Assembly (NCBI GenBank): GCA_963765585.1
Contig: CAVXXB010000006.1
Span: 68,007 to 132,006, forward strand
Origin: Calditrichia bacterium
GTDB taxonomy: Bacteria > Calditrichota > Calditrichia > JAJRVZ01
Direction: 5' to 3'
Length of the DNA: 64,000 nucleotides
Shown: one piece after another, positions 3,170 through 64,000 of the stretch
How the letters are laid out: each line of letters begins with the position of its first letter
Numbering within the stretch: the stretch's first letter is position 1
The notes under the pieces: generated by a model
The model's database searches: none
Told to the model about the DNA's origin: nothing
The model's input: the letters and a program-made list of their open reading frames with translations, nothing else
Made by a program: the position numbers and the translations under genes

Positions 3170-4153
3170 TTATTTCTCCAGATACGAATCAGGCCCCAGT
3201 TTTGAAGGGATTATTTTTTGAATACCCCTTACTGTTTTTAATGCCGTGAACACTTTTTCCTCATATTCAGGCAGGGTAAGCAGTTTAACCTGTGGCCCGG
3301 CATCGATGGTAAAATATACCGGAATACCCTCCTTGCGCAATTGTTGAACGAGGTGAATAATGATCATGGTCACGTTATTCCAATATATCAGTGCAGGCTG
3401 GGTAGAAATCATGACGGCATGCATTTTGAGACAACTGCTTTCACTTAACTCACCCAATTTTTGGAAATCTTTACTGGCAATGGCCTGGTGCATTTCTTGA
3501 ATATCATTAGCAGAAGTGCTTAACCAGGAGTTATAATAGGCGGATGTATGCGCACTGTTTTCCATGCCGATGGTTGAGTTATAGGTTTTTTCTGCTTCGG
3601 TTGTGACGGCCACCAGCACCCGCAGATCCCAGTAATTTTCATCCTGTATCTGATATGCATGTGCGTCGCTGCCATCTGGTAATTCGCCCATCTTCATTTC
3701 GGCAAATCCGCCAAAAAGTGATCTTGCAGCCGAACCAGACCCTCTTCGGGCCAGAACGGATAATTGTTTTAAGGGGAGGTTTAATCCAAGTGCTTCGGTT
3801 GATGCCAGCGCCAGAGCGGCGAATGCCGAAGCCGAGGACGCTAATCCGGCTCCAGTGGGAAAATTGTTTTCACTGGTAACCGAGGCAAAGATTGAAATAC
3901 GAGATTGAGTTCGGACCAGATCAAGAAACTTGCTAACACGAGCTTGTTTAAGTCCTCTGACGCGTCTACCTCCCAGAATAAATTCATCCTCATTCAGAGA
4001 TTCATCAAACGTCACTTTCGTGCGCGTAGATAACGCATCCAGGGTTATGGAGATGGAACCGACCGCAGGTAGATTGAGGGCAGAGTCACGTTTCCCCCAA
4101 TACTTAATAAGTGCAATATTAGAATGAGCCACGGCAGAAGCAGAATTTTTCAT
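3170..4153 (-). CDS. mvaD: Diphosphomevalonate decarboxylase
   Basis: Signature NIALIKYWGKRD and GHMP fold. The track ORF extends to 4297, but the extra N-terminal residues are a translation of the adjacent repeat. The true start is probably MKNSASAV at 4153. Confidence 0.8.
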   Translation of the reverse strand: MKNSASAVAHSNIALIKYWGKRDSALNLPAVGSISITLDALSTRTKVTFDESLNEDEFILGGRRVRGLKQARVSKFLDLVRTQSRISIFASVTSENNFPTGAGLASSASAFAALALASTEALGLNLPLKQLSVLARRGSGSAARSLFGGFAEMKMGELPDGSDAHAYQIQDENYWDLRVLVAVTTEAEKTYNSTIGMENSAHTSAYYNSWLSTSANDIQEMHQAIASKDFQKLGELSESSCLKMHAVMISTQPALIYWNNVTMIIIHLVQQLRKEGIPVYFTIDAGPQVKLLTLPEYEEKVFTALKTVRGIQKIIPSKLGPDSYLEK

Positions 4154-4204
4154 AAGAATATCTGAACCTTGATTGATTCTAAGACAGCAATATAAAAAAT
4201 GTGG

Positions 4205-5640
4205 ATGTAGGTTGCAATTCAGGAGGCAAGATACAGGATGCAAGATGCAGGATACAGGATTCAGGATGCTGGATGCTCGGTACTCGCAACTCGGCACTCG
4301 CTTCTCGGCGCTCGCCGCTGGATGAATAAAATTGTTCCCGATAACTGGTACAAAAATGCATTATTATTGCTCATCTACCTTTTACAAAAGCCCCGAAGGG
4401 GCTAAATATTTGTAGCCGCGGGCAAGGCCCGCGGTGGAAGATACATCCCACAACCCATAACCCCGAAGGGGTTAAATAAATGCTCACACATCGGGAAGAT
4501 TCCTGCGGAATGACAGGCAGGAGACAATATACAGATTCAGGATGCAGGATGCATCGGTGCTCGATACTCGGCACTCGTCAAGATGCTAGGATGCTCTGTA
4601 CTCGCAACTCGGCACTTACCGCTGGCCAATCTATCTTTTAGAAAAGCCCCGAAGGGGCTAAACAATTATAGCCGTGGGCGCAGCCCACGGTAGAAGATAC
4701 ATCCACAACCCATAACCCCGAAGGGGTTAAATAAAAACTCACACACGGGAAGATCTCTGCGGAATGACAGGGCAGGAGACAAGATACAGGATCAGGATTC
4801 AGGATACAAGATGCTCGATGCTGGATACTGGATTCAAGATGCTGGATGCTCGGTTCTCGGTACGCGGCACTGGCCGCTGGCCAATCATCATTCAGATAAG
4901 CCCCGAAGGGGCTAAATAATTATAGCCGTGGGCGCAGCCCACGGTAGAAGATGCATCCACAATCCATAACCCCGAAGGGGTTAAATAAAAAATCACACGA
5001 CGGGATGATCTCTGCGAGATGACATGGCAGGAGACAAGATACAGGATTCAGGATTCAGGATACAAGATGCTCGATGCTGGATACTGGATTCAAGATGCAG
5101 GATGCTCGGTACTCGCAACTCGGCGCTCGCCGCGTGGCCAATCATCATTCAGAAAAGCCCCGAAGGGGCTAAAAATTATAGCCGCGGGCAAGGCCCGCGG
5201 TAGAAGATACATCCACAACCCATAACCCCGAAGGGGTTAAATAAATACTCACACGATCGGGAAGATCTCCTGCGGAGATGACAGGACAGGAGACAAGATA
5301 CAGGATTCAGGATTCAGGATACAAGATGCTCGATGCTGGATACTGGATTCAAGATGCAGGATGCTCGGTTCTCGGTACGCGGCACTGGCCGCTGGCCAAA
5401 TCATCATTCAGATAAGCCCCGAAGGGGCTAAATAATTCTAGCCGCGGGCAAGGCCCACGGTAGAAGATACATCCAAAACCCATAACCCCGAAGGGGTTAA
5501 ATAAAAAATCACACGACGGGATGATCTCTGCGAGATGACAGAGCAGGAATCAGGATACAGGATACAAAATTCTGGATACTGGATGCTGGATGCTCGGTTC
5601 TTGGCACTGGACGCAGGATAAAAGTCCTTCTCCATAGGAT
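4205..5640. repeat. Tandem array of a ~256-bp composite structured repeat: 5 full units starting at ~4387, 4643, 4897, 5153 and 5412, plus a leading partial unit. Each unit holds four hairpins and a ~90-bp degenerate 7-bp-periodic tract.
   Basis: Direct reading. Each unit contains, in order: AAAAGCCCCGAAGGGGCTAAA; TAGCCGYGGGCRMRGCCCRCGGT; AACCCCGAAGGGGTTAAATAAA; GATCTCTGCGAGATGACAG or GATTCCTGCGGAATGACAG; then (GGATNCA/GATGCTN)n. Stem differences between copies are compensatory. Confidence 0.9.
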
Positions 5641-5737
5641 CCTGTTGCGGGACAGGATGACAGTGTTAATTTGGAAGTACTTAGGGACTAAGGCGCTTAG
5701 GGACTTTCTCTTAGCCTCTTTTCCTCTTCGCCTTCTA

Positions 5738-6193
5738 TTACTCAATCACCTTCGTTATCGTAAAAAAAGATCGATTACTTTCGGCCATATTTTTAGAGAT
5801 ATTTCTGGAGATTAACGCACTGATGCCCAATCCGGCAAGTCCACCTGCAAAGAAAAGTAATTCCTGATGAATTCCGGCAATAGTAAAGTCAATTATATAT
5901 AGAACTATAATTCCCAGCAAAAAACCGATAAAAGGAATGCCATATTGCACGGCTGATACTTTTAGTAGAAAATCTGAGGACTCGCTGATGGCTACACGAT
6001 TGCCGACACCGGCATTTAAAGGATTTGAGACTTTTAATGCTCTTTTTCCGTCCTTATCCGGGACACATAACACCCTGGCACCACAATTTTCGCATGCAGG
6101 TTGTATGTTCAACTCGACAATGGCATTGCCATTCTGAACCTGCGTGATAATTCCGGTTTCAAAATCCTGGGCACCGGACTCCTGATTAGGCAC
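5738..6193 (-). CDS. rseC: RseC/MucC-family protein (SoxR-reducing-system component often linked to rsx/rnf operons)
   Basis: 151 aa. N-terminal Cys-rich region (CENCGARVLC) followed by two predicted TM helices. Immediately downstream of rnfB in the same operon orientation. Confidence 0.55.
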   Translation of the reverse strand: MPNQESGAQDFETGIITQVQNGNAIVELNIQPACENCGARVLCVPDKDGKRALKVSNPLNAGVGNRVAISESSDFLLKVSAVQYGIPFIGFLLGIIVLYIIDFTIAGIHQELLFFAGGLAGLGISALISRNISKNMAESNRSFFTITKVIE

Positions 6194-7059: not shown

Positions 7060-7180
7060 CATGCTATTTGATTAGAGATTAGAAATGAGAGATGAGAGAT
7101 GGTAATCGGTAATTAGTTATTTTTTCTTAGGAATTTGGCAGATCATTCCAAATCTCTAATCTCTAATCTCTAATTTCTAA
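7060..7180. repeat. Imperfect inverted repeat built from (AGAGATT)n heptamers, with ~35-bp arms and a ~50-bp spacer, lying between rnfB and rnfA
   Basis: Left arm gattagagattagaaatgagagatgagagatgg. Right arm ccaaatctctaatctctaatctctaatttctaatc, which is its reverse complement with mismatches. Confidence 0.7.
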
Positions 7181-7759
7181 TCATACCGATATCAGCCCGG
7201 CAAAACCCATAAAAGCCAGTGCCAGCGAGGCTGCGACGATCATGGTAATTCCGGCGCCTTCAAATGGTTTTGGTACTTTGGCAAGTTCCAGTTCCTCACG
7301 GATACCCGCCATAATTACGATGGCCAGGGTAAATCCGGCACCCGCACCAATTCCAAATACCAGACTTTCCATAAAATCATATTCACGGAGTACTGAAAAC
7401 AATGCCAGACCCAATATGGCACAATTTGTCGTAATGAGCGGCAGGTAAATACCCAGCGCATCATACAGAGGTTTACTTATTTTTCGTACAAACATTTCAA
7501 CCAGTTGCACCAATGATGCAATAACCAGAATAAATGAAACATACTGTAAAATTTCCAACTGGAATGGCACCAGAATCAGATTATAAATCAACCAGGTAAC
7601 CGCGGCTGTAATTGTCATTACAAACGTTACTGCCATCCCCATACTCACCGCAGATGATATTTTTTTTGAGACGCCAACAAAGGGACAGATTCCCAGGAAG
7701 TATGACAAGACAAAGTTATTTACAACCGCCGCAGATACAAATAATAAGAAAAATTTCAT
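7181..7759 (-). CDS. rnfA: Rnf complex subunit A
   Basis: 192-aa polytopic membrane protein of the RnfA/NqrE family, in rnf operon context. Confidence 0.8.
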   Translation of the reverse strand: MKFFLLFVSAAVVNNFVLSYFLGICPFVGVSKKISSAVSMGMAVTFVMTITAAVTWLIYNLILVPFQLEILQYVSFILVIASLVQLVEMFVRKISKPLYDALGIYLPLITTNCAILGLALFSVLREYDFMESLVFGIGAGAGFTLAIVIMAGIREELELAKVPKPFEGAGITMIVAASLALAFMGFAGLISV

Positions 7760-11599: not shown

Positions 11600-12390
11600 C
11601 TTCAGGAATTAATTTCAAAGAGAAAGTGGATACGGGGCACAGGGTGCGGGATTCAGGAGACAAGATGCCGGATGCTGGATACTGGATGCTCGTCACTGGG
11701 CACTCGGCACTGGCCAAATCATGGAATATTTGGCCCCGATTTACCGACCGGAGAGAGGTGTTGTTATCGGGAATGCTGGATTCTCGGTACTGGATGAAAA
11801 AAGGTTTCCATACTACCCATTAAAAAAAGCCCCGAAGGGGCTAAACATTCTAGCCGCGGGCAACGCCCGCGGTACAGGATCCATCCACAGCCCATAACCC
11901 CGAAGGGGTTAAATAATAATTTACACGACGGGAGGATCCTGCGAGATGACAGACCAGAAAACAGGATGCAGGATTCTCGGTTCTAGGCACTTGGTACTGG
12001 CACTCGCTTCTCATTTCCGGATGCTTGCCGTTGAATGGGTATAATAATTCCGTATGACTGGAATAAAAATGCATTGTTATTGCTCATCTACCGTTTACAA
12101 AAGCCCCGAAGGGGCTAAACAATTCTAGCCGTGGGCGTAGCCCACGGTGGAAGATCCACCCACAACCCATAACCCCGAAGGGGTTAAATAATTGACCACC
12201 CATCGGGAAGATTCCTGCGGAATGACATGGCGGGATTCAAGATACAGGATCCAGGCTTCAGGTCCCAGGTTTAGGATCACCGAGTGGTCCTGGAGCCTGG
12301 TACCTTACTCCTTGGTCCTTGTACCTTGAGCCTAGAACCTACCTGTATCCTGTATCCTGCATCCTGAATCTATTCCTCCGCCTCTGGCTT
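11600..12390. repeat. Second array of the ~256-bp structured repeat family: 2 units (hairpin blocks start at ~11825 and ~12099) plus flanking heptamer tracts
   Basis: Carries the same AAAAGCCCCGAAGGGGCTAAA, GCCGCGGGC..GCCCGCGG, AACCCCGAAGGGGTT and ..CTGCG..ATGACA hairpins as the 4205..5640 array. Confidence 0.85.
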
Positions 12391-12496: not shown

Positions 12497-15194
12497 TCAA
12501 GTGGATCCCAACCATAATAATAATAAGTTTCCAGTCTTGTTTAGCCAGAATTTATTTTCTTTTTCGCTCTTTTCGCGTGCCCTTAGTTGAGATTCTTTAA
12601 CCTTTGTCAGATATAATTCGTCAACAAGTTCTGTTTTCAAACTGTCAATTTGTTTATTTACATTTTCCACCAGTTCTTCCACGCGGGATGGATCGCAACC
12701 AAATGATACGATAATGCGGTACGTCTGTCTCGGGTATCGGGAACTAAAAGCACTGGCACCAACACTATACGTACCTCCCAATTGCTCACGCAAAACTTCA
12801 CGAAGTTTAATCTGCAGTACCTGTGCCATCGATCTCAGACGATAGTCATTTAAGGCTGACCATTCAAAGTCACCGGTATATTGGATCTGGACCTCGCTCT
12901 GCTCTTCAATGCCCTTTTTAACAACTTTTTGAATGATTCCTTCCGGCGTTTTAATTTCTGTGTCTTCCCACTCTTCTTTCCGGTTCATATCTGGTAGATT
13001 TGCCAGGTAGGTTTCAACAAACGGCTTTAAGGAATCAGGCGTAAAATTCCCGACAAAAATAAAAGTAAAATCACTGGCATCCGCAAAACGATCTTTATAA
13101 ATAGCCAGCGACTTATTAATATCCATTTCAGCGAATAATTCTTCAGTCCAGGGTCTGCGCCGGGGATGATACTGTGCCATGGTCAATTGAATGGTGTCCT
13201 GAAATGCAGATTTTGGATCGGCGTGTCTGTTTTTTATATACTCCTGAAGCCGGTATCTATAAGAGGCAAACGCCGTACTGTCTACCCGCGGTGAATAAAA
13301 ATAAAGATAGATCAGTTGAAACATCGTCTCCAGATCCTGTGGGGAAGCCGATCCCATGAAGCCTTCTTCCAGTTCCCCGATCCATGGTGTAACTCGTGCT
13401 ATTTTTCCTGTGAGTAATTTCCCCAGTTCAATCATACTAAAATCAGAGATACCGGATTGTTTAATGATCGCCGTGGCACTCACTGCCGGAACATAATCTT
13501 TATTATCAACCAGAGAGTTTCCTCCGGGACTTGAGGCTGTAAATAAAATTTCATCATTTTTAAATTCAGTCGGTTTGAGGATTACTTTAATGCCATTTGC
13601 CAATTGCCATTCGGTTACATCAATGCCTGCAATATATTTTTCACCCGTAATAGTCACCGGTTTCAATTCTTTATCAAAAAGTGGTGTGTCTTTTAATTTA
13701 TCTTCATATGCAGTAATTTCCATTGCCGCAACGGCCTTGTAGACATTGGCCAATTCATCCTCTGTGGGTATAATTAAACCTTCCTTTTCCGGGGCAGTTA
13801 CAGTAATTACCCGGCTCTTTACCGACATCCATTGTTCACCCAGATGATTTATTTCCTCTAATGTAATTTGTGGTAAAAAGAACTTTTGATATGCAAACTC
13901 TGTCTCAATACCAGGGATAGGTTCGGCACTCAGAAAGTTCCGGATATACTCGGCAGCATACTGACCCGATTCCGATTTATCCCGTTCGGCATATGACTGC
14001 TCCATTCGGCGTAACATAGCCGTTTTTGATCGATCCAGTTCTGATTGTGTAAAACCATGTTTCTTTACCCGCTCCGATTCTATCAATACTGCTTCCAGAC
14101 CCGCCAGGATTCCATCATCTTTTACCGATGCGCTCAGGGTGTAGGCATCTTTTGTCCTGACAAATCCTCCTTTTGATGACATCGCATATAGAAATGGAGG
14201 TTCCGGTTGCTGTAAAAGTTCCTGGAATCTGCGATTCAACATAGAATTATACAAATTCTCTACCAGCATACGCCGGTAGTCGCCGATTTTACTCTCCTCT
14301 TGTCCTTCCAGTTTATGATACACACGTAATGCGGTTCCGGTTGCCTCTGGATCTGTCGCAATGGCAAAAAGTGTTTCGTCATGATCCGGCACCGTATATA
14401 CGGTTCGTTCAGCAGCATCATCTGCGAGTGTAAGACGGCTAAAATGAGTCTTAATTTTTTGCTCGATATAATCAGGATCAAAATCTCCAACCGCTACAAC
14501 GGCCATCAGATCAGGGCGGTACCATTTTTTATAAAACTGGCGCAATGTTTCATGATCAAAATTTTCAATAATATCCATTTTACCAATAGGTAATCTTTCA
14601 GCATAGCGTGAATCATGCAAAATTACCGGCAGTACTTTATCAAATAAGCGGGCACCGGCGCCTCTTGCGTAACCGCCATTCTTCAATTATCACACCCCGT
14701 TCCTTGTCAATTTCTTCACCTTCCATGGAAATCTGGTGCGCCCAGTCCTCCAGTATCTGAAACGCCTTGTTCATAATTGATACGCTGTCAGTGGGAATTT
14801 GCAGCATATATACGGTTTCATCAAAGCTGGTATACGCATTTAAATCCGGACCAAAGCGCATACCGATTGATTCCAGATAATCCACCAATTCGTGTTTTTG
14901 AAAATTCTGTGTTCCGTTAAATGCCATGTGCTCGAGAAAATGAGCGAGTCCCTGCTGGTCGTCATCTTCCAAAACTGATCCTGCATTTAAAACCAAACGA
15001 AGCTCGGCCCTGTTCTCCGGTTTTTTATTCACTCTGATGTAATAAGTCAATCCATTATCCAGTTTTTCGATTTTAATATCGGGACTTACCGGAATTTTAT
15101 CTTCGATATTAAATTCCTGAGCGGAAAGGGTCAAAAAAGACAAAAGAAAAAAGACAAAAGAAAAAAGTAGAACAATTGACAATCTGGTTTTCAT
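12497..15194 (-). CDS. M16-family zinc peptidase (pitrilysin/insulinase-like), interrupted by a frameshift near 14655..14665
   Basis: The N-terminal ORF (14640..15194) has a signal peptide and the HxxEH zinc motif (HFLEHMAFNGT). The 729-aa ORF (12497..14686) continues in frame +1. The junction reads EEWRLR | GAGARLFD, consistent with a single-base indel in ttacgcaAgaggc. Confidence 0.75.
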
Positions 15195-18100: not shown

Positions 18101-18308
18101 TTTTATGTGATTTGTCTGTAAATTAGGTAAATTGTAAAGATTAAAAATTTAAGTAAATCGCGATTGAAATGCAAAGTACGTAAATTTTGATAAATATTAT
18201 ATTTAGGATGGGAAATTTTTCTCTCGCAGAGACGCACAAAAACAAAATTAGAGATTAGGAGAATTAGAGATTAGAGATTTTAAATCAGAAAAATATAAAG
18301 TTTCCTTG

Positions 18309-18328
18309 CCCCAGGATTAATCCTGGGG
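18309..18328. promoter_or_regulatory. Perfect 20-bp palindrome CCCCAGGATTAATCCTGGGG (copy 1) in the yicC/rqcH divergent region
   Basis: Exact palindrome. A second identical copy lies 167 bp downstream. Confidence 0.35.
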
Positions 18329-18475
18329 TAAAAGTCAGATGGATTTGTAGTCACTAATTTCAATGAGCAAAGATTAAAGTTCAAAGCAATATTTTATTTA
18401 AAAATTTTTAAGCTATTTAAAAAAAATAGTTATCAGCAAAAGGCATTCTATTTTAAATCTCCTTACCCCAGGATT

Positions 18476-18495
18476 AATCCTGGGGCAATTCAATC
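18476..18495. promoter_or_regulatory. Perfect 20-bp palindrome CCCCAGGATTAATCCTGGGG (copy 2), ~135 bp upstream of the 18632 gene start
   Basis: Exact duplicate of 18309..18328. Candidate operator site or hairpin. Confidence 0.35.
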
Positions 18496-24515: not shown

Positions 24516-24589
24516 GCAATTTTCCTTTTTTGTAAAATATCGTCTTTTCTTGATCCGAGTCAAGGAAATAATTTTGAGTGTGTATTATC

Positions 24590-24845
24590 TTATACAAGAT
24601 ACAAGATACAAGATACAGGATTCTGGATGCGGGATACTCGGCACTGGGCACTCGCTCCTCGTTACTGGATGCTGGATGCTGGATGCTGGGTAAAAGATGC
24701 AAGATACAGGATATTTCACAAATGAAAGTGCATGTGAAAAAGCTAGCCCCGAAGGGGCTAAACAATTCTAGCCGTGAGCGTAGCCCACGGTGGATGATAC
24801 ATTTACAACCCATAACCCCGGAGGGGTTAAATTATTGTAGGAGAT
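24590..24845. repeat. Single copy of the ~256-bp structured repeat family (heptamer tract plus hairpins), immediately upstream of the 24850 gene
   Basis: Contains (caagata)n / ggatgct tracts, then AGCCCCGAAGGGGCTAAACAATTCTAGCCGTGAGCGTAGCCCACGGTGGATGATACAT…AACCCCGGAGGGGTTAAAT. Confidence 0.8.
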
Positions 24846-24849
24846 TATA

Positions 24850-25680
24850 ATGATTCGACAGATTATAGAAATAGATGAAGATAAATGTGACGGTTGCGAA
24901 CAGTGTATTCCCGGTTGCCCGGAAGGTGCGATTCAAATGGTCGATGGTAAGGCCAAATTGGTTAATGATGTATATTGCGATGGATTAGGTGCCTGTCTTG
25001 GTAATTGTCCCCAGGGTGCAATTACAGTTATTGAACGTGAAGCGGATGAATATAATGAAGTCGAGGTAATTCAGAATATTATGCAGCAGGGAGATGAGGC
25101 CGTTCAGACACATCTTGAACATCTGCGTGAACATGGTGAAAATGATTTATTACAGATAGCAAAGGATGTGCTGGAAAAATCAGGCAAACCTAGCCAGGGT
25201 TTGGAAATGGCAGCACCAAAACCAAGCGGATGCCCGGGATCCAGAAATATGACTTTTGAAAAACCGGCGGCAGTTACACAAAACACGGAAGCCGTTTCAT
25301 CCGCCCTCACACACTGGCCGATTCAGTTACATCTCATTTCGCCAATGGCACCACAATACGCCGGATCAGATCTGGTTCTGGCTGCAGATTGTGTTGCGTT
25401 TTCTATGGGCGATTTTCATCAAAAATATCTCCAGGGAAAAACACTGGCAATTGCCTGTCCCAAATTGGATAGTTCACAAAATATCTACCTGGAAAAACTA
25501 AAACATATGATTAATGATGCCAAAATTAACACCTTAACAGTTCTAATTATGCAAGTGCCGTGTTGTTCCGGTTTGTTACAAATGGCGCAGCAAGCACTGG
25601 CTCAGGCATCTCGCAAAGTACCTCTAAAAGCTATTGTTGTCGGTATCCAGGGGGATATTCTTCAGGAAGATTGGGTATAA
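24850..25680 (+). CDS. 4Fe-4S dicluster-domain protein (N-terminal ferredoxin-like domain, C-terminal domain of unknown function)
   Basis: N-terminal CDGCEQCIPGCP…CDGLGACLGNCP. 276 aa. Divergent from the Crp/Fnr regulator. Confidence 0.55.
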   Translation: MIRQIIEIDEDKCDGCEQCIPGCPEGAIQMVDGKAKLVNDVYCDGLGACLGNCPQGAITVIEREADEYNEVEVIQNIMQQGDEAVQTHLEHLREHGENDLLQIAKDVLEKSGKPSQGLEMAAPKPSGCPGSRNMTFEKPAAVTQNTEAVSSALTHWPIQLHLISPMAPQYAGSDLVLAADCVAFSMGDFHQKYLQGKTLAIACPKLDSSQNIYLEKLKHMINDAKINTLTVLIMQVPCCSGLLQMAQQALAQASRKVPLKAIVVGIQGDILQEDWV

Positions 25681-27955: not shown

Positions 27956-28223
27956 CAAATTTAAAAGCGCTTTCTGCTTTCGGCTATCCGCAATCAGCGA
28001 CTTTTTGTTTATAAGTATTTATCGAAAAATCAGGGCGGAAAGCCGATAGCAGATGGCAGGAAAACAGGATACGGGATACAGGACACAAGAGGCTGGATGC
28101 TGGATAAGAATTTATGTGGTTTTCAATTCAACAATTTCCAACTATCCTGTTATCCTGTCTAAAAAAATATCTGCGCCAAACTATAATTCTCGAACCCAGA
28201 TGTTGCGGTAGCTGACCGGGTTA

Positions 28224-28984: not shown

Positions 28985-29075
28985 ACATATGTAATTAGGA
29001 ACTGGGAATTGGGAACTGGTGATTAATCATCTAATATCCAATTACCAATTCCGAATTCCTAATTTCTAATCTACC
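28985..29075. repeat. Imperfect inverted repeat of GGAACTGGGAATTGG-type oligo repeats around a central TGATTAATCA palindrome
   Basis: …aattaggaactgggaattgggaactggTGATTAATCAtctaatatccaattaccaattccgaattcctaat…. Confidence 0.6.
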
Positions 29076-35019: not shown

Positions 35020-36780
35020 CTAATAACCGATGGCACATCCATCTTTCCTCGAATCAGAACCACCAAAGTAACGTCTGGGTTCTTCCCGGCGCCAAATGCC
35101 CTGATAGCCGCCAAATGTGCCGTAGGACTTCAATACTTTATGCCCCATATCCGTCAGTTTTTGTCTGACCTCATCCCCAATAAACCGCTCAAAAATTACC
35201 TCCCCGCCATCTTTCATTATTCCTCCCATTGGAGTTGAACTTTCATAGTGGGCAATTCGTGGAAATTCCCCGGCCTGTTGCGGTGACATACCATAGTCTA
35301 TCAAATTCATTAATACCTGGGAATGGCCTTGCGGCTGAAAATCACCTCCCATGACACCAAATGAAAATACCGGTTTTTCATTCTGTGTGACAAATGCCGG
35401 AATGATTGTGTGGAACGGGCGCTTGTGCGGCTCCAGCCGGTTTCTGTGTGAATCGTCCAGGGCAAAAAGTTGACCGCGATTTTGTATGGCAAATCCCAGA
35501 CCATCCGGTACCATGCGAGATCCAAATGAGTAATAGACACTCTGAATCAGAGAAACCATATTGCCTTCGCTATCTGCTGCGGTCAGATAAACAGTGTCAG
35601 ATTTTCCCGGGCTGCCCGGTGTAACTGAAACGGATGCCTTTAGCGGATCAATCAACTCAGATCTTTTTTTGCCGTATTCCTTTGATATAAGCCATTCCAC
35701 CGGAACCTCGGCAAAATCCATATCAGCATAGTAAACCGCCCGGTCTTCAAAGGCCAGTTTTTTGGCTTCCAGAAATAAGTGTAACTGTTCTGCCGAATTT
35801 GGTTTTAGCGACGCAATATCAAAATTTTCCAGAATATTCAGGATTTGCAAGGCTGCAATACCCTGACCGTTGGGTGGTAGTTCCCAGACATCGTATCCCC
35901 GATAGTTCGAACTGACCGGCTCCACCCAGGATACTGAATGCTCGCGAAAATCCCGCAAGGAAAATCTTCCACCGTTTTCTTTTGAGTATTGGACGATCCG
36001 GTCTGCAATTTCACCCTGATAAAAACTTCCGGCACCTTCCGCTGCGATTTTCTCAAAAAACGAGGCCATATCGGGGTTTTGAAAGATATCTCCAAACTGC
36101 GGTACCTGACCATCCGGTGCATAGACGGCAGCCAGTGATGGGTAATTCTTAAAATCAATGCCGTTCCAGGCACGTGCGATCACCGGGGATACAGGGAAAC
36201 CATCACGTGCATAATTTATCGCGGATCCGAATAATTCTTTAAAGGCAAGTTTACCAAATTTTTTACTCAGGGCATCCCAACCGCTGACACATCCCGGCAC
36301 ACTCCAGGAAAGCGGTCCAAAAGTCGGGATTTCCTTTAGATTCATTTTTTTGGCTTCATCCAGCGACCAGTCAAAGGGTGACCTTCCACTGGCATTCAAT
36401 CCATATAATTTTTTTTCCTTTTCAATCCATACGATGGCGAACAAATCTCCACCCGGTCCGCAGCTCATGGGTTCTACAACACTCAACGCTGCATTGGCTG
36501 CGATAGCGGCATCAATCGCATTGCCGCCTGCTCGCAGAACATCAATTCCTGTGATCGTAGCCAGTGGTTGACTGGTGCAGACCATACCATTGCTACTCAC
36601 GACCGTTGAACGATTCTGATTTCTATATTGCAGATCTTCTTTATCAATCATCATCGATTCCTTGTTTATAATGCCACCCTGATTTTGTCCAAATGCGTTT
36701 TGACTAAAAAGTAAACCGGTTATGCTGCCACTGCCGGCAAATTTTAAAAATGATCTGCGTTTCATGATTTTGATCCTCAT
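35020..36780 (-). CDS. ggt: Gamma-glutamyltranspeptidase (secreted)
   Basis: 586 aa. Signal peptide MKRRSFLKFAGSGSITGLLFSQNAFG. GGT family motifs. Autoprocessing region …SDTVYLTAADSEGNMVSL…. Confidence 0.8.
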   Translation of the reverse strand: MRIKIMKRRSFLKFAGSGSITGLLFSQNAFGQNQGGIINKESMMIDKEDLQYRNQNRSTVVSSNGMVCTSQPLATITGIDVLRAGGNAIDAAIAANAALSVVEPMSCGPGGDLFAIVWIEKEKKLYGLNASGRSPFDWSLDEAKKMNLKEIPTFGPLSWSVPGCVSGWDALSKKFGKLAFKELFGSAINYARDGFPVSPVIARAWNGIDFKNYPSLAAVYAPDGQVPQFGDIFQNPDMASFFEKIAAEGAGSFYQGEIADRIVQYSKENGGRFSLRDFREHSVSWVEPVSSNYRGYDVWELPPNGQGIAALQILNILENFDIASLKPNSAEQLHLFLEAKKLAFEDRAVYYADMDFAEVPVEWLISKEYGKKRSELIDPLKASVSVTPGSPGKSDTVYLTAADSEGNMVSLIQSVYYSFGSRMVPDGLGFAIQNRGQLFALDDSHRNRLEPHKRPFHTIIPAFVTQNEKPVFSFGVMGGDFQPQGHSQVLMNLIDYGMSPQQAGEFPRIAHYESSTPMGGIMKDGGEVIFERFIGDEVRQKLTDMGHKVLKSYGTFGGYQGIWRREEPRRYFGGSDSRKDGCAIGY

Positions 36781-36954
36781 ATTTTGTCATCCCGAACTTG
36801 TTTCGGGATCTATTGGGAATTACAAATGTGAAGATAATGGAAAAAAGGAAAAGAGGCAAAGGGGGAAAAAGGAATAAGGAAAAAGGATCAAGGTGCAAGG
36901 AAGGCAACACGGGCTTCAAGGCGCCAGGCTCAGGAACAGGAATCAGGTTTTCGG

Positions 36955-37135
36955 GTAGTAGTCATCCTGGGTGCTGTTTCTTGAATCGTGTCCCATGTCA
37001 TTCCGCAGGAATCTTCCCGACGTGTGGGCATGTATTTAACCCCTTCGGGGTTAGGGGGTGTGGATGTATCTTCCACCGTGGGCTACGCCCACGGCTAGAA
37101 TTGTTTAGCCCCTACGGGGCTCTTTATTAACGGTA
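36955..37135. repeat. Single inverted-orientation copy of the hairpin block of the ~256-bp structured repeat
   Basis: …GTCATTCCGCAGGAATCTTCCCG…TTTAACCCCTTCGGGGTTAGG…CCACCGTGGGCTACGCCCACGGCTAGAATTGTTTAGCCCCTACGGGGCTCTTT, the reverse complement of the unit seen at 4640..4760. Confidence 0.8.
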
Positions 37136-37597: not shown

Positions 37598-37783
37598 CCA
37601 CAGAGGCCACAGAGATAGAAGACAGGTTTTATAGAATCAGGAATTTGTAATTAGTAATTTGTTAATGGTCTCTGGTTACAGGTCATCTATATTTTTAATA
37701 CTTATGTGAAGTTGTCAATTTAAAATTGAAAATTCATAATTTATAATTTATAATTGCATTTTTATGCTCTGTGGTCTCTGTGG
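37598..37783. mobile_element. Empty MITE (~186 bp) of the same TIR family, flanked by TTAA on both sides
   Basis: TTAA|CCACAGAGGCCACAGAGATAG … GCTCTGTGGTCTCTGTGG|TTAA. 18-bp near-perfect TIRs. No ORF inside. Confidence 0.65.
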
Positions 37784-41543: not shown

Positions 41544-42036
41544 TGGATATCTCCAATTTTTATAATGATTTTTATTTGATTGAAAGAATAAGTCCCTCAG
41601 CACCTGAGTCCCTGAGTCCCTGGGAGTAGAAGTGAAAAAGAGACAGAGCGACAAAGATACAAAGTCAATAATTGATTAAATTAAAAAATCCCGAAAGGAT
41701 TCAACAATTACAGGTTACGGAAGTTTATTTCCATGTTCAATAAAAATATTTAGAAAATTTATTTTTTAGATTTGAAGTAGTTTGATTTGCATGAAGTCCC
41801 TGAGTTCCTAAGTCCCTAAGCATAGATTTTAGTACCAAGTTTTAAGAATATTATTTCAATAGAAAGATACTCATTATAGATTAAAGGAGTCTCTTTTTAG
41901 TAGCATTTCGCTGCAGATCATTTTTATGCTCAGGGACTCAGGGACTCAGGCGCTGAGGGACTATTCTATTTAAAATAAGGGTTCCACTTGCAATAATTAT
42001 CCCAAATTCTGATATTATCCAAAACCCGGAAATACT

Positions 42037-42738: not shown

Positions 42739-43192
42739 GCAGGCAAAAGGCAAAAGGAATAAAAGGTAAAAGAAAAAATATTTCATACAGTCATCCCGTC
42801 CCGGAACGAGATCCTATGGATAGGGATCATGTTCCGTTTGTCACACCGAGATCCACTGAGAATACACAGAGTTCCACAGAATATATTAATTGAATATGCA
42901 ATACAACCTTACCTTTGGGATTGATAGGTAAATACAAATTCTTATAGAATCAGAACTCAGGGACTTAGGGACTAAGGTGCTCAGGGACTTTTTTTTATTA
43001 CACAAAGAACCCGAAGAATCCACGAAGTTCACGAAGAATAAATATTGAATTTATTTTAATTTTATTAGTTTGGCATATTGATTTATGAGTTTAGATATTT
43101 TAAATTTAAGATTCTCTGACTGAGCAATCAGTCATTTTTAATATAAAGACGTTTCTGATTTTGGAATTTGGATTTTAGATTTTGGATTACAT

Positions 43193-43264
43193 TCCGGCGT
43201 AGTCAGCTGGTAGAGCGGGTGACTGTTAATCATTAGGTCGTAGGTTCGAGTCCTACCGCCGGAG
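43193..43264 (+). tRNA. tRNA-Asn (anticodon GTT)
   Basis: Acceptor stem TCCGGCG/CGCCGGA. Anticodon loop CTGTTAA. T-arm GTAGG-TTCGAGT-CCTAC. Discriminator G. CCA not encoded. Confidence 0.8.
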
Positions 43265-43346
43265 CCTGACCCCACACATTTTTGTGCTGGGGTTTTTTAT
43301 TTTTACGAAGCAAATTCTAAGCACTAATATCTAAATCTTAAACAAT
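43262..43346. repeat. 85-bp direct repeat, copy A. Starts at the last nucleotides of tRNA-Asn and covers its terminator plus ~45 bp downstream.
   Basis: Matches 52378..52462 with 5 mismatches. Confidence 0.85.
43270..43299 (+). terminator. Rho-independent terminator after tRNA-Asn
   Basis: CCCCACACATTTTTGTGCTGGGG followed by TTTTTT. Confidence 0.5.
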
Positions 43347-43504
43347 ACCCAAATTCAAATGCTTAAATATAAAAGTTTTGAACATTAAATTATTGGTGTT
43401 TTGAATTTGTTTAGGATTTAGGGCTTAGAAATTAGGATTTTATAGATTGTATCGAATTTTAAAAACTGGATAAAAAATGGCCCTGCATTGCAGAGCCTTT
43501 AACA

Positions 43505-43640
43505 TGCTGTTTTTATGTATCTTACTTCAGCAATATCATCTTCTTGACTTCCCTATACTCCCCCGCCACCAACTGGTAGTAGTAGATTCCACTCGCCAGA
43601 TTCTTTCCGTCAAATTTGCTGTAACATTTATGTAATGTTA
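43505..43640 (-). pseudogene. Orphan 3' tail (~45 codons) of a T9SS-CTD gene, with its terminator at 43474..43497 and no upstream body
   Basis: Minus-strand translation …KFDGKNLASGIYYYQLVAGEYREVKKMILLK*, followed by the GGCTCTGCAATGCAGGGCC hairpin plus a T-run. This matches the 3' ends of the genes at 53300 and 55118. Confidence 0.5.
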
Positions 43641-52140: not shown

Positions 52141-52377
52141 AATTCACCCCAACTCCCGCATAACAATCGTAACCCAGGCGCGGGAGACGCCCAACTTTCT
52201 TGCTAATGCTGCTCTGCTTCCGATTTTCGGGTTGTTAACCATTTTTTGGTATTTTAAGGCAAGTTCATACCGGGAAATACGTTTCTTCAATTTTTTGGTG
52301 TTAATCTTTTGTTGGCGTTGGCCAAGTCGCAGTGGGAATTCTGTAGTAAAAAAGTTCGAGTTTAGGACGGATGAGGG

Positions 52378-52462
52378 GAGCCTGACCCCACACATTTTTG
52401 TGCTGTGGTTTTTTATTTCTACGAAGCAAATTTTGAGCACTAATATCTAAATCCTAAACAAT
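52378..52462. repeat. 85-bp direct repeat, copy B, matching the tRNA-Asn 3' end / terminator copy at 43262..43346
   Basis: GAGCCTGACCCCACACATTTTTGTGCTGtGGTTTTTTATTTcTACGAAGCAAATTtTgAGCACTAATATCTAAATCcTAAACAAT. Only ~6 nt of the tRNA itself are shared. Confidence 0.85.
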
Positions 52463-53254: not shown

Positions 53255-53280
53255 CAAAAAAGGCCCTGCATTGCAGAGCC
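53255..53280 (-). terminator. Rho-independent terminator (GGCTCTGCAATGCAGGGCC plus T-run on the minus strand) after the 53300 gene
   Basis: Perfect 8-bp stem, GC-rich, followed by TTTTTT on the minus strand. The same hairpin recurs at 43474 and 55034. Confidence 0.6.
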
Positions 53281-53299
53281 TCTATAAAAAGTTTTGACA

Positions 53300-54730
53300 C
53301 TATCGCATCAGGATCATTTTTTTTGTCTGATGAAATTTCCCGGCTGCAATCGTGTAGAAATAAACTCCGCTGGCCAGATTTGAGGCATCAACGGTTAAAA
53401 AATGCGTACCAGCCGTTTTATGGCCCGCAAATACCGAACCCACAACCTGTCCGGTTAAGTTGTGCAGCGTGATTTCTACAAATTCATTTGCGGGCAGCGT
53501 AAATGATATGGTGGTGCTCGGATTAAAAGGGTTTGGATAGTTTTGCGATAAATGATATCCAAGCGGAGTTTTTATTAAACTCTCATCCGTTGCATCAATT
53601 GCTGCAAGTTCGCTTTCAATAATATTTAAAAAGTAAATGTCACCAGCACTGCCGTATGATTGGGTTGATCCTATAATCGTATAACTGCCCTCTCCACTGC
53701 AAATCACCTGGTTCGCCCAGTCATTCCCTTCACCGCCATAGGCCTTAGTCCATACTGTATCGAGATTTGCATCGAGTTTTAGCACATATATATCACCTAA
53801 GCCGGCTCCAATCGAAGTGGTAGATCCACAGACTATATAACCGCTATCCGGAGTTTGGGCAATAGAATACCCATATTCATCTTGGGCAAAACCGTAAGTT
53901 CTGGTGGATAATGTATCACCGTCCGATGTTATCTCCGCCAGGTACACATCGTACCCGCCGGCGCCCGACGACTTTGTTGTACCAAGAACGAGAAATCCAC
54001 CATCAGAAGTATTGCATATATCGTAACCAAAATCAACATCGTTTCCGCCGAGCGTACAGGTCCATAACGTATCACCGTTGGATGAATCCAATTTCGCGAT
54101 ATACATTTTGTTCGGACTGCCAACGGCGCCGGTCATCAGGTAATGTTTATCCGCTGTCTCAATAATTTTGTATCCAATAACCGGACCATATGTCCGTGAC
54201 CATTTTTCCACTCCTTTGGCATCGGTTTTCACCGCCCAAAGATCACTATAATTATATTGACCGGTAAACACAAATCCGGAATCGCAAGCCTGGACAACTG
54301 AGTAAGAGCCGTCTTTTCTCGAACTGCCAAAGTTCTTCTGCCAGATTAAATTCCCCAGGTTATCGACTTTTATAAGACAGACATCGCCGGAATTTGCACT
54401 GCCGCTGCTGAATGTTCTGCCACAAATAAGATAATTGCTGTCCAGGGTAGCGATGACTTCCATCCCGTTATCCCATGATACACCACCATAAGTTCTGGTC
54501 CAAATGGTATCTCCTTCTGCATTTGTTCGGATTAAATAGATATCATTATAATATGATTCCTGGTAAATACCGGTAATTAAAAATCCGCCATCATCCAATT
54601 GTACCGCACCGTAACCAATGTCATTGTAATCTCCGCCATACCATCTTTCTGAAACAATGGTTTGTGAAAAAAGATTCATGAAAAGAGCAAAAAAGACAAT
54701 CACAAAAAGCAGATTAAATCGTTTCAACAT
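53300..54730 (-). CDS. Secreted beta-propeller repeat (SBBP-like) protein with T9SS C-terminal sorting domain
   Basis: Signal peptide. About eight ~45-aa repeats (…GGxxxDxGxxxxxTxDGG(F/Y)(L/I)(I/V)xG…). CTD LSQNYPNPFNPSTTISFTLP…GVYFYTIAAG…KKMILMR. Confidence 0.65.
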   Translation of the reverse strand: MLKRFNLLFVIVFFALFMNLFSQTIVSERWYGGDYNDIGYGAVQLDDGGFLITGIYQESYYNDIYLIRTNAEGDTIWTRTYGGVSWDNGMEVIATLDSNYLICGRTFSSGSANSGDVCLIKVDNLGNLIWQKNFGSSRKDGSYSVVQACDSGFVFTGQYNYSDLWAVKTDAKGVEKWSRTYGPVIGYKIIETADKHYLMTGAVGSPNKMYIAKLDSSNGDTLWTCTLGGNDVDFGYDICNTSDGGFLVLGTTKSSGAGGYDVYLAEITSDGDTLSTRTYGFAQDEYGYSIAQTPDSGYIVCGSTTSIGAGLGDIYVLKLDANLDTVWTKAYGGEGNDWANQVICSGEGSYTIIGSTQSYGSAGDIYFLNIIESELAAIDATDESLIKTPLGYHLSQNYPNPFNPSTTISFTLPANEFVEITLHNLTGQVVGSVFAGHKTAGTHFLTVDASNLASGVYFYTIAAGKFHQTKKMILMR

Positions 54731-55033: not shown

Positions 55034-55060
55034 AAAAAAAAGGCCCTGCATTGCAGAGCC
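55034..55060 (-). terminator. Rho-independent terminator (the same GGCTCTGCAATGCAGGGCC hairpin) after the 55118 gene
   Basis: aaaaaaaaggccctgcattgcagagcc read on the minus strand. Confidence 0.55.
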
Positions 55061-55117
55061 TTTAACATTTTGTTTTTATACATCTTACTTGATGCAGATA
55101 TCATCTTCTTCACTTCC

Positions 55118-62806: not shown

Positions 62807-63199
62807 TTAAAATTAAGATGATATAATCCTGTCAGAATTGCTTTTAAATGCAAAATGTTTCAATTCAGTCCAAATTTAAATCGGAAATTAGTAAATTTCA
62901 CCAAAAATGATGATAAATCTTATTCCTATCTTACTAAATTAGTAATTAGTTATTTGTAATTGGGAACTGGGGAATCAGTTGGCAGTAGGCCGTAGACGGT
63001 TAGCGAAACTACCAGTTGTAAGGAACGGTCTAAGACCGTTCCGGGTCTCAAAATGATAACTTATCTGTCATTACGAGGAGTCCTCCAACAAAGGACGACG
63101 AAGTAATCCCGTTCTCCGACTTTGATTGCAGATATAAATTCTTGATTATCCTGATTTAATTCTTAAATTGTCCGATGTCCGTGGGGGTGTTTCACAAAA

Positions 63200-63320
63200 G
63201 GTGGAACTGAGAAAAAACCCTTCGAACCTGATCTGGATTATGCCAGCGTAGGGAAACGGTAAAATATATCAGGAATCTCCCATTGTAACCGTTTTCTTCA
63301 GTCTGGAAAACGGTTTTTTT
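63200..63320 (+). promoter_or_regulatory. Riboswitch-like leader (cobalamin-riboswitch-like core) with an intrinsic terminator expression platform, upstream of the TonB-dependent receptor gene
   Basis: AGGGAAACGGTAAAAT…TCTCCCATTGTAACCG resembles the cobalamin-riboswitch core (GGGAA.CGGTG.AAA…CCCGCAACTGTAA.CGG). It is followed by the hairpin AACCGTTTTC-ttcagtct-GGAAAACGGTT plus TTTTTTT at 63287..63320, 20 nt before the ATG. Confidence 0.35.
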
Positions 63321-63339: not shown

Positions 63340-64000
63340 ATGATATCCAATTATTCATATCGCCTGTATATTTTTTCTTTTGTCTTTTATCTTCTGTCTT
63401 CCCTCTCCGCCCAGGAACTGGTACTGGTAAAGGGCACTGTTTTCGATGCGCAAACAAAAGAACCATTGGCCGGCGCCAATTTACTCATCGAATCACTAGA
63501 TCGTGGCAGCACTTCTGATATATCCGGACATTTTTTATTTTCTGATATTCCGCACGGTGACTATATCATAAGCGCCAGTTTTATAGGATATAAGGTTAAT
63601 AAACAGAAACTGAATATAAAAGATACTTCACAGATTACCATGCGGATTGAGTTAACTCCGACAATTCTTGAAGGTCAATCGATTGAGGTGACCGCAACCA
63701 GAGCAGCGGATGGGAGAACACCGGTTACCTTTACCAATATAACGCAAAAAGAGCTGAGTGAACAATATACCGCCAGTGATATCCCAATTCTACTCGATCA
63801 ACTACCCAATGTTTACTCCTATTCACTTACCGGTGATAATCTCGGTTACTCGTTTTTAAAAATCCGCGGCTTTGATCAATCACGGGTAGGTGTAATGGTC
63901 AATGATATTCCGCTGAATGATCCTGAGGACCAACAGGTGTATTGGGTTGACCACCCGGATCTGGCCGAAAGTGTTCAGGATATCCAGGTTCAGCGCGGTG
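63340..64000 (+). CDS. TonB-dependent outer-membrane receptor with an N-terminal carboxypeptidase-regulatory-like domain; 3'-partial
   Basis: Signal peptide. CarbopepD_reg-like domain (…VKGTVFDAQTKEPLAGANLLIE…GDYIISASFIGY…). Then the plug-domain start (…NDIPLNDPEDQQVYW…). Runs off the window edge. Confidence 0.75.
   Translation, partial: MISNYSYRLYIFSFVFYLLSSLSAQELVLVKGTVFDAQTKEPLAGANLLIESLDRGSTSDISGHFLFSDIPHGDYIISASFIGYKVNKQKLNIKDTSQITMRIELTPTILEGQSIEVTATRAADGRTPVTFTNITQKELSEQYTASDIPILLDQLPNVYSYSLTGDNLGYSFLKIRGFDQSRVGVMVNDIPLNDPEDQQVYWVDHPDLAESVQDIQVQRG

Follow-up and report, generated by a model that had tools for sequence, protein, structure and literature searches.

A five-unit hairpin array from a Calditrichia bacterium as a probable cluster of transposase-end repeats

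A tandem array of hairpin-rich units, each of about 256 bp, lies near the start of a 64,000-nt stretch of DNA (the window) from a Calditrichia bacterium (contig CAVXXB010000006.1). It occupies the gap between the stop of rseC (5738), the last gene of a minus-strand rnfC-D-G-E-A-B-rseC cluster, and the start of the diphosphomevalonate decarboxylase gene (mvd; 4153, minus strand), and hence stands at the rnf/rseC 3' end, where an earlier note on this DNA had placed it. With a probability that we put at roughly 0.7, the array is a cluster of non-autonomous ends of an element with an IS200-like (subclass 1.2) Y1 transposase, comparable to repetitive extragenic palindromic (REP) sequences and bacterial interspersed mosaic elements (BIMEs), and is not a new RNA. 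Judged by alignment, the block repeated in the array is homologous to the ends that flank such transposase genes in other genomes. The earlier note had offered either an RNA or a cruciform or protein-binding DNA; because inverted ends colinear with the block enclose a Y1/HUH gene (at 12 out of 63 loci selected by motif and at four of four selected by protein), protein-binding DNA is favoured and an RNA gene is not supported. An apparently exotic array of structured RNAs would thereby become an explained object, a cluster of transposase-end repeats.

Hairpin blocks at the ends of a Y1 transposase gene

Each unit of the array consists, in order, of a first hairpin (h1, AGCCCC-GAA-GGGGCT), a linker of 11-12 nt, a second hairpin (h2, GCCGYGGGC-loop-GCCCRCGGT), an A/C-rich spacer of 21-22 nt, a third hairpin (h3, TAACCCC-GAA-GGGGTTA), a fourth (h4, ATTCC/ATCTC-TGC-GGAAT/GAGAT) and a period-7 tract of ~100 nt. 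The core in the window can be written as a hairpin hA (CCCC-GAA-GGGG), a conserved 12-nt linker (AAATaTGAATAr), a variable hairpin hB, the A/C-rich spacer (~20 nt) and a second hA-type hairpin. Species-representative genomes were searched with the 20-mer TAACCCCGRAGGGGTTAAAT, which is the window h3 plus four bases, and 63 loci (labelled L003 and so on) were retrieved from several phyla, with Bacteroidota, Ignavibacteriota, Victivallales, Planctomycetota, Parabeggiatoa, Blastocatellia and Neomarinimicrobiota among their hosts. The flanks share a common module, in which hA (CCC(C)-loop-(G)GGG) and the linker AAAT-a-TGAATA-r are followed by a GC-rich hB whose sequence is wholly different from genome to genome and whose pairing is always kept. 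Some modules stand alone, and others form inverted pairs (Victivallales, Parabeggiatoa) or tandem arrays, whose periods are 53, 66, 70, 134 and 285 nt. They are spread across several phyla and are strictly intergenic, none of the 77 full modules lying within an open reading frame (ORF).

An ORF census of the 63 loci brought out a recurrent frame of exactly 148 aa beside the modules, and this gene was found in 12 of the loci by tblastn. The protein is a Y1/HUH transposase, which matches Pfam Y1_Tnp (PF01797) with E values of 1e-21 to 1e-28 and reaches 62-80 bits on the NCBIfam model transpos_IS200 (NF033573, cut-off 55). Its motifs are DHIH, WQ and Y(I/V)KNQEEHH, with DHIH and Y114xxxQ118 invariant, and its C-terminal tail is conserved. 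Among solved structures it is closest to the TnpA proteins of ISDra2 and IS608 (2XM3, 2A6M), and the structure of the E. coli REP-associated tyrosine transposase (RAYT) was absent from the PDB matches at E ≤ 1e-3.

The block has a fixed place at the two ends of this gene. Upstream, on the sense strand, the order is hA, linker, hB, a spacer of ~20 nt and a second hairpin, hA2, followed after ~10 nt by the ATG; downstream, 2-15 nt beyond the stop, the same block is found inverted. The framing block measures ~95 nt, and the h1-linker-h2-spacer-h3 segment of the window aligns with the ends of the transposase gene column for column. At one locus (L007, from a Bacteroidales metagenome-assembled genome, MAG), an ORF for a '23S rRNA-intervening sequence protein' (PF05635; 5169-5606, minus strand) stands between oppositely oriented modules.

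A protein profile search for the transposase returned at least 7,988 homologue clusters, nearly all of 148 aa. As a reciprocal test, four homologues were picked by protein alone, the sole criterion being long contigs. At all four loci, matches to a covariance model of the module (R1, described below) were confined to within ~900 nt of the gene, with + strand copies right before the ATG, - strand copies right after the stop and additional copies farther out in either orientation. Across samples, none of the four homologues had more than a single genomic location. In L003, L021, L031, L039, L040 and L071 the transposase gene has tandem arrays (periods 53 to 285 nt) next to it, so clustering is typical of the family.

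MAG hosts of the 148-aa family include Parabeggiatoa, Neomarinimicrobiota and Ignavibacteriota (Melioribacteraceae), and a plasmid search detected the transposase on two large Cytophagales replicons only. The Bernardetia sp. plasmid NZ_CP147018.1 (L080) encodes at 53960-54430 an annotated IS200/IS605 tnpA product that is 44% identical to the 148-aa family. This homologue is without R1 modules and has several GTTGCAGAGCAAC palindromes in its upstream flank, as would be expected if protein subgroups and hairpins co-evolve.

A presence/absence polymorphism of a single module was found in Flavobacteriales, where a 78-nt segment of L055 (linker, hB, spacer and second hA), bounded by a 26-nt direct repeat containing hA, is absent from the orthologous loci L008 and L027. 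No match to the 20-mer was found in viral contigs and no blastn match to the unit in the PLSDB plasmids, and no phage or plasmid vector is evident from these two sets. The array was not traced in close relatives: a metagenome scan with a lineage-specific 23-mer gave only two loci, from another, higher-GC lineage, and exact-protein look-ups of RnfD, RseC and MVD of the window gave only short contigs ending at repeats, or nothing.

The earlier note had proposed a covariance model; the one built here reveals strong compensatory change across genomes. R1 rests on a gapless seed of 12 sequences restricted to 3-nt loops and gave 150 matches at E < 1e-3 in 490 kb. The family is abundant, as the earlier note had claimed, and widespread, with nine copies in 64 kb and 63 loci in several phyla. 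In an alignment of 132 distinct module copies from many genomes, itself fitted to R1 and including many related copies, 97.8% of stem cells were paired (82.8% in shuffles), 214 double-change cells were observed where 46 were expected, and all 14 stem pairs showed compensatory change. When the partner column was slid as a control, pairing was 26-62%, and the hB stems were unconstrained by the search pattern. The selection on secondary structure that had been claimed from the window is thus well supported.

Relative to co-directional flanking genes, modules have no preferred orientation (18 vs 17). The intergenic regions that carry them comprise 24 co-directional, 5 convergent and 4 divergent ones; the depletion in divergent regions (4/50 by module, 4/33 by region) is treated as weak. 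Wobble pairs on the module strand number 17 G.T and 8 A.C, a weak and model-biased difference, and assignment of the functional strand from it was rejected on that account.

Enzymes of the IS200/IS605 and RAYT groups recognise folded hairpins plus adjacent bases in single-stranded DNA. Such recognition would explain both the compensatory stem changes and the conserved linker. What follows on recognition by this transposase, on how the array grew and on transcription is our inference. Stems may be kept since copies that no longer pair would lose recognition by the transposase, while those that keep their stems would stay recognisable and able to be copied or retained; the linker may hold recognition or cleavage information. 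Solo blocks would be mobilised or maintained in trans and would act like REP/BIME sequences or REPINs (REP doublets forming hairpins), which is to say strictly intergenic, in either orientation and single or clustered. The five-copy array would most likely have grown via unequal recombination or replication slippage between neighbouring copies, with h4 and an ordinary intergenic heptamer tract carried along. Effects on the host, such as hairpins at the 3' end of the rnf transcript and partial termination, are plausible and would be secondary.

Copies, stems and tracts in the window

Tandem Repeats Finder reported the 256-bp array at 4386-5594 (4.7 copies, 88% matches, score 1779), and a repeat finder recovered its units together with copies at ~11.8, ~12.1 and ~24.7 kb and an inverted copy at 36993-37124. 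R1 was run over the whole window with filters off. Above noise it detected only full hairpin modules, exactly nine, and half modules, also nine and corresponding to the third hairpins of the units. The full modules on the + strand start at 4389, 4645, 4899, 5156, 5415, 11828, 12102 and 24745, and the sole full module on the - strand is at 37121-37076. The five-copy array described in the earlier note is therefore real, and the same nine modules are recovered as in its count of five, two, one and one, with array periods of 256, 254, 257 and 259 nt. Array units are 70-94% identical, those at the edges diverging most, and so are not the identical copies that recent amplification would have left. 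The nine copies (u1 to u9 in window order) and their associated segments are as follows.

4203-4315, + strand: leading heptamer tract (CAGGATG / CTCGGYA types) before the array, homologous to the tracts at 11616-11714, 24585-24713 and 28064-28106
4316-4385, + strand: AT-rich spacer X, in common with 12030-12100, ending CTACC-N-TTTACAAA right before h1
4386-4641, + strand: array unit 1; module 4389-4434, third hairpin 4459-4482, h4 ~4499-4511, then heptamer tract
4642-4895, + strand: array unit 2; module 4645-4690, third hairpin 4714-4737, h4 ~4753-4765 with its pair broken, then heptamer tract
4896-5151, + strand: array unit 3; module 4899-4944, third hairpin 4968-4991, h4 ~5008-5020, heptamer tract 5028-5140
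5152-5411, + strand: array unit 4; module 5156-5200, third hairpin 5224-5247, h4 ~5265-5279, heptamer tract 5286-5395
5412-5640, + strand: array unit 5, partial and most divergent; module 5415-5460 with a C.A mismatch in h2, third hairpin 5484-5507, h4 ~5524-5536, heptamer tract shortened
11616-11714, + strand: heptamer tract, again of this family, preceding units 6 and 7
11828-11965, + strand: unit 6; module 11828-11872, third hairpin 11896-11920, h4 with a broken pair
12102-12240, + strand: unit 7; module 12102-12147, third hairpin 12171-12194, then h4
24585-24840, + strand: unit 8; heptamer tract 24585-24713, module 24745-24790 with an A.C mismatch in h2, third hairpin 24814-24840
36993-37124, - strand: unit 9, inverted; module 37121-37076, third hairpin 37052-37030, h4 present

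Spacer X belongs to a repeat pair, 4289-4475 and 12002-12188, with 75% identity. Unit 8 is without h4 and ends 10 nt upstream of the ATG of a ferredoxin-like gene at 24850; the non-array copies of the window adjoin unrelated housekeeping genes. ORFs of 60-78 aa in the units overlap the period-7 tract. Right after unit 7 a heptamer tract (GGATTCAAGATACAGGATCC...) and, behind it, the reverse complement of that tract (...CCTGTATCCTGTATCCTGCATCCTGAATC) form a long imperfect palindrome at 12225-12370.

Within the window the stems of h1 and h3 do not vary. A single pair covaries in h2: it is C-G in three copies (CGCGGGC/GCCCGCG in u1, u4 and u6), T-A in four (CGTGGGC/GCCCACG in u2, u3, u7 and u9) and broken in two (u5, a hybrid, and u8, A.C). 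In h4 two pairs covary, the stem being ATTCC/GGAAT in u1, u7 and u9, ATCTC/GAGAT in u3 and u5 and ATCTCC/GGAGAT in u4; pairing is broken in u2 and u6. This in-window covariation, of one h2 pair and two h4 pairs, probably reflects few events. The compensatory examples given in the earlier note are literally correct; taken alone, the window with its hybrid and mismatched copies is a thin basis for the claim, and it is from the other genomes that strong support comes.

Read on the minus strand, h4 is TCATTCCGCAGGAATC, and by sequence it may belong to a distinct hairpin family of wide occurrence. A hairpin of the type GTCATyCC...GGrATC lies in the window at ~36775-36800 (GTCATCCCGAAC-ttgt-TTCGGGATC), and GTCATTCCTGCGAAGGCAGGAATC is found immediately upstream of a module in L065 (~1620-1730) and L066 (~250-300). 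A perfect hairpin, CCCCAGGAT-TAA-TCCTGGGG, has two copies (~18300-18325 and ~18466-18487) in a divergent intergenic region beside ATTAGAG heptamers, and one of these is a weak R1 match (15 bits). An integron attC site was considered, as GTTAAAT fits GTTRRRY, and was rejected since there is no matching inverse core RYYYAAC 5' of the hairpin.

The tracts at 4203-4315, 11616-11714, 24585-24713 and 28064-28106 and those within units follow one common heptamer progression, which makes them homologous. They are part of a wider population: the window has 32 short-period tandem tracts, of which 27 have period 7, with many different units (including AATCTCT, AAAAAAG, ATTAGAG, GGAACTG, AATTTAT and GATTTTG). 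Examples are found at 7151-7182, 15133-15167, 18247-18279, 28998-29019, 36839-36887, 37717-37755, 41591-41622, 43157-43188 and 63371-63400. Over the window and the external loci, such tracts make up 2.6% of intergenic and 0.17% of coding sequence. Outside the window their density near modules is no higher than far from them (2.27% vs 2.13% of intergenic bases), and for this reason the in-unit tract is best taken as intergenic heptamer DNA of the ordinary kind that was swept into the duplication. In addition, inverted 45-nt tracts of AGTCCCTG-type octamers (41591-41635 and 41918-41962) lie on both sides of a 282-nt segment that precedes a Vut_1 transporter gene.

Several other features of the window were noted. 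Sorting domains of the type IX secretion system (T9SS) and Y_Y_Y/Reg_prop regulators are encoded in it and indicate a Bacteroidota-like organism (FCB group). A tRNA-Asn gene (43193-43266) is followed by an 86-nt stretch (43261-43346) that recurs 9.1 kb downstream at 52377-52462 with 94% identity, and these repeats may be the borders of an island that entered at the tRNA 3' end. The interval between the copies encodes T9SS-tail proteins and a hybrid two-component sensor, and a DUF4143 gene comes after the second copy. A terminator-like hairpin, AAAAAAGGCCCTGCATTGCAGAGCC, lies 3' of a gene at each of 43472-43527, 53255-53310 and 55035-55090, and the three genes end in similar T9SS C-terminal sorting domains. 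A thiamine pyrophosphate (TPP) riboswitch aptamer at 63173-63272 (+ strand) scores 72.7 bits (gathering score 54.3).

Competing explanations

Several points weigh against a cluster of transposase ends, in addition to the fitted alignment and related copies mentioned above. The 148-aa transposase gene was not found within the 64-kb window by tblastn. The model of transposase ends leaves h4, spacer X and the heptamer tract unexplained. The inverted ends are unlike those of classical IS200/IS605 elements, and the protein fails the RAYT model (NCBIfam NF047646, REP_Tyr_transpos), with 25-30 bits in six of seven proteins, none in the seventh and a cut-off of 80; neither textbook class fits exactly. 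For subclass 1.2, no REP-like sequences were found by Quentin et al. (PMC6006769). Covariation cannot separate DNA hairpins from RNA hairpins. Finally, for one unit the fold of the + strand RNA beats its shuffles (z = -3.5) and that of the minus strand does not (z = -0.8); this difference and the 17 vs 8 wobble asymmetry fit a strand-specific role as RNA or as single-stranded DNA.

A broader proposal, which we consider unlikely, is that the modules are the unrecognised cognate DNA of an 'orphan' Y1 enzyme of subclass 1.2, domesticated and single-copy across many phyla. The repeat system would then include Acido-Lenti-1 and would seed tandem arrays and perhaps the period-7 tracts of Bacteroidota, Beggiatoaceae and Cyanobacteria, the arrays being used by the host as transcript-end or insulator structures.

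It is unlikely that the array is a tandem set of small RNA (sRNA) genes, similar to Acido-Lenti-1 or to the NsiR1 repeats of Anabaena, whose covariation reflects RNA function. Such genes would agree with the strong covariation, with the fold of the + strand and with the run of 4-7 T behind h1 on the minus strand of five copies. The five array copies also match Rfam RF01687 (Acido-Lenti-1), the seed of which has the same two-hairpin plan and is likewise tandem, on the minus strand over h2 and h1 (18.7-30.5 bits; best E = 1.4e-4 in a 1.65-kb search). However, none of these scores reaches the gathering score (37), most modules from other phyla have no match (one of 34 bits in 56 kb), and no Rfam family reaches its gathering threshold in the array, so that the Rfam comparison suggested in the earlier note yielded only these sub-threshold matches. 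The minus-strand fold, moreover, is no better than that of shuffles, and the occurrence of modules in both orientations relative to genes and as inverted pairs round the transposase gene fits a DNA element better.

Promoters point in the same direction. NsiR1-like arrays have a promoter and a terminator per unit, whereas neither of the promoter types scanned here supports one: the Bacteroidota -7 box TAnnTTTG occurs 83 times in the whole window and on neither strand of 4150-5750, and the 6 sigma-70-like sites are not above the 3.8 ± 2.0 of shuffles. A discrete RNA per unit therefore lacks an Rfam family at threshold, a -7 box and a dedicated orientation. As there is no Bacteroidota-type -7 box between rseC and mvd, the array may lie inside a transcription unit, mvd being transcribed through the array or from an atypical promoter.

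An improbable alternative is that the array is a host cassette for termination or mRNA stabilisation, which ends and protects the rnf/rseC transcript and insulates the mevalonate genes. Termination by the left-end hairpin of IS200 and stabilisation of upstream mRNA by E. coli REPs are established, and the array stands right behind the last gene of the rnf cluster with GC-rich, perfect hairpins, some with T tails. Five units with >15 hairpins, however, far exceed what termination needs, and copy 8 is in a divergent promoter region right before a start codon. The preponderance of co-directional over convergent and divergent regions also speaks for a cassette, yet the divergent depletion (4/33) is modest. 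The stem of minus-strand h1 is 6 bp long and its loop 3 nt, and the tails behind it in the nine copies are TTTTGT, TTTTCT, TTATCT, TTTTCT, TTATCT, TTTTTTT, TTTTGT, TAGCTTTTT and TCTTTATT, so that 4/9 copies have weak, mixed tails. A terminator scan (criterion, at least 5 T in 8) called minus-strand h1 in no unit and h2 or h3 in some units; the description of h1 as a canonical terminator in the earlier note was overstated. Neither the conserved linker nor the cross-phylum framing of a transposase gene is explained by such a cassette.

A protein-sponge RNA, in which heptamers of the + strand (CAGGATG, CAGGATA, CTGGATG) titrate an RNA-binding protein in the manner of CsrB/RsmZ and the hairpins stabilise or terminate the transcript, is very unlikely. 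The CsrB repeat is CAGGA(U/C/A)G, to which the Tandem Repeats Finder consensus CAGGATG is equal, and the + strand has 3.6 GGA per 100 nt, where the minus strand has 0.76 and the window average is 1.6. Binding of CsrA, S1 or Csp has been proposed for intergenic heptamer repeats (MacGregor 2015, PMC4679880). Many unrelated heptamer units occur in the same genome, however (AATCTCT, AAAAAAG, AATTTAT, GATTTTG), the tracts are a general intergenic feature, with nearly the same density near modules and far from them outside the window, and no promoter was found among the types scanned. CsrA is not known from Bacteroidota. The CsrB-repeat match and the GGA richness are probably coincidental.

A plain satellite, that is, neutral tandem duplication unrelated to the transposase with hairpins that are copied local terminators, would account for the identity range with most divergent edge units, typical of unequal crossing-over, and for the ordinary heptamer tract, but is contradicted by the dispersed copies at four unlinked places in the window, by blocks with compensatory changes in dozens of genomes of several phyla and by the fixed geometry round the Y1 transposase gene. 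Strong stem covariation in multi-copy intergenic hairpins is by itself no evidence for an RNA gene.

Comparison with known systems

With IS200/IS605 elements (IS200, IS608, ISDra2) and their derivatives that lack a transposase, the palindrome-associated transposable elements (PATEs), the present loci have in common a Y1/HUH transposase of ~150 aa and subterminal hairpins at both ends. IS200 has a perfect GC hairpin just upstream of tnpA, the same placement as here. In contrast, the left and right hairpins of IS200/IS605 are like-oriented on one strand, whereas the copies here are inverted; those elements have several near-identical copies per genome, whereas each gene here is at a single place; and here there is no tnpB and solo ends far outnumber genes.

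REP/BIME/REPIN sequences and their RAYT (TnpA-REP) genes, the 'REPtrons' of E. coli, Pseudomonas and Stenotrophomonas, are short GC-rich palindromes, strictly extragenic and of high copy number, which occur singly, in pairs or in tandem clusters that include flanking DNA. The window copies are likewise extragenic, palindromic and multi-copy, with perfect or near-perfect stems. In REPtrons and TIRtrons a low-copy Y1 gene is framed by inverted hairpin repeats, and there are many intergenic solo copies (PMC3733652; PMC6006769). Such framing is seen here in the loci of relatives, and protein subgroups with differing cognate hairpins also have a parallel, in the GTTGCAGAGCAAC palindromes of the Bernardetia homologue. 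The differences are in the details of the unit. The unpaired GT[AG]G (or CGTC) tag that REP elements keep at the hairpin foot is not conserved here, hB being preceded by A, G or C and then TAG or TAA (GTAG in one window copy, ATAG in three, CTAG in five; family consensus A-T-A-R). A REP unit is one hairpin, here there are two or three plus the conserved 12-nt AT-rich linker; REP sequences are lineage-specific, while here sequence is conserved across phyla; and the REPtron protein is a class 2 RAYT, where the present one is of class 1 (IS200-like).

Period-7 intergenic tracts, as yet without explanation, have been described from Beggiatoaceae, Cyanobacteria and some Bacteroidetes, F. litoralis among the latter (MacGregor 2015, PMC4679880). 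Those heptamers and the cyanobacterial short tandemly repeated repetitive (STRR) sequences resemble the tracts described here in being of period 7, confined to intergenic DNA and variable in unit, with function unknown, and the former occur in the same broad taxa as the subclass 1.2 gene. F. litoralis is now placed in Bernardetia, the genus of the L080 plasmid. The heptamer of that earlier description is TAACTGA; here CAGGATG and its relatives occur, with one tract family embedded in a 256-bp repeat.

Acido-Lenti-1 (RF01687; Weinberg et al. 2010) has, like the module, 46 nt in total, made up of an 8-bp variable hairpin ending GG, CUA, an AU-rich linker (UUAU) and a 5-6-bp hairpin with a UUCG-like loop. 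Its reverse complement has the same two-hairpin plan as the modules, and the cmscan alignment takes in all 46 model positions, pairs both stems and has GGCUA..UUAU in common. The two hairpins are joined by a 12-13-nt AU-rich linker beginning CUA, an architecture that is also found in the window copies. Acido-Lenti-1 is multi-copy, often tandem (periods 74-200 nt), of unknown function and 'sometimes near group II introns'. It differs in linker sequence, is defined on the opposite strand as an sRNA from Acidobacteria and Lentisphaerae, and no transposase link is reported for it. By the Rfam threshold it is not the same family, and it is best called a look-alike and a possible relative. From the 16 loci and the signature motifs, Acido-Lenti-1 may itself be nuclease-recognised DNA and not an sRNA.

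The closest match for the protein is TnpA-Y1 subclass 1.2 (Quentin, Siguier, Chandler and Fichant 2018, PMC6006769), whose transposases are close to those of IS200 yet low in copy number. Both have 148 aa, DH[IV]H, WQ, Y---Q--HH (YIKNQKEHH) and the same conserved C-terminal tail, and both are of low copy number and present in Bacteroidetes; the assignment of the 148-aa protein to subclass 1.2 follows from this equality of signature motifs. On the evidence of the same 16 loci and motifs, a subclass hitherto without known partner DNA may have a REP-like repeat family of its own, in which the multi-hairpin layout is unusual and the sequence is conserved unusually widely among phyla. Where subclass 1.2 was described without cognate repeats, the genes found here are framed by hairpin modules.

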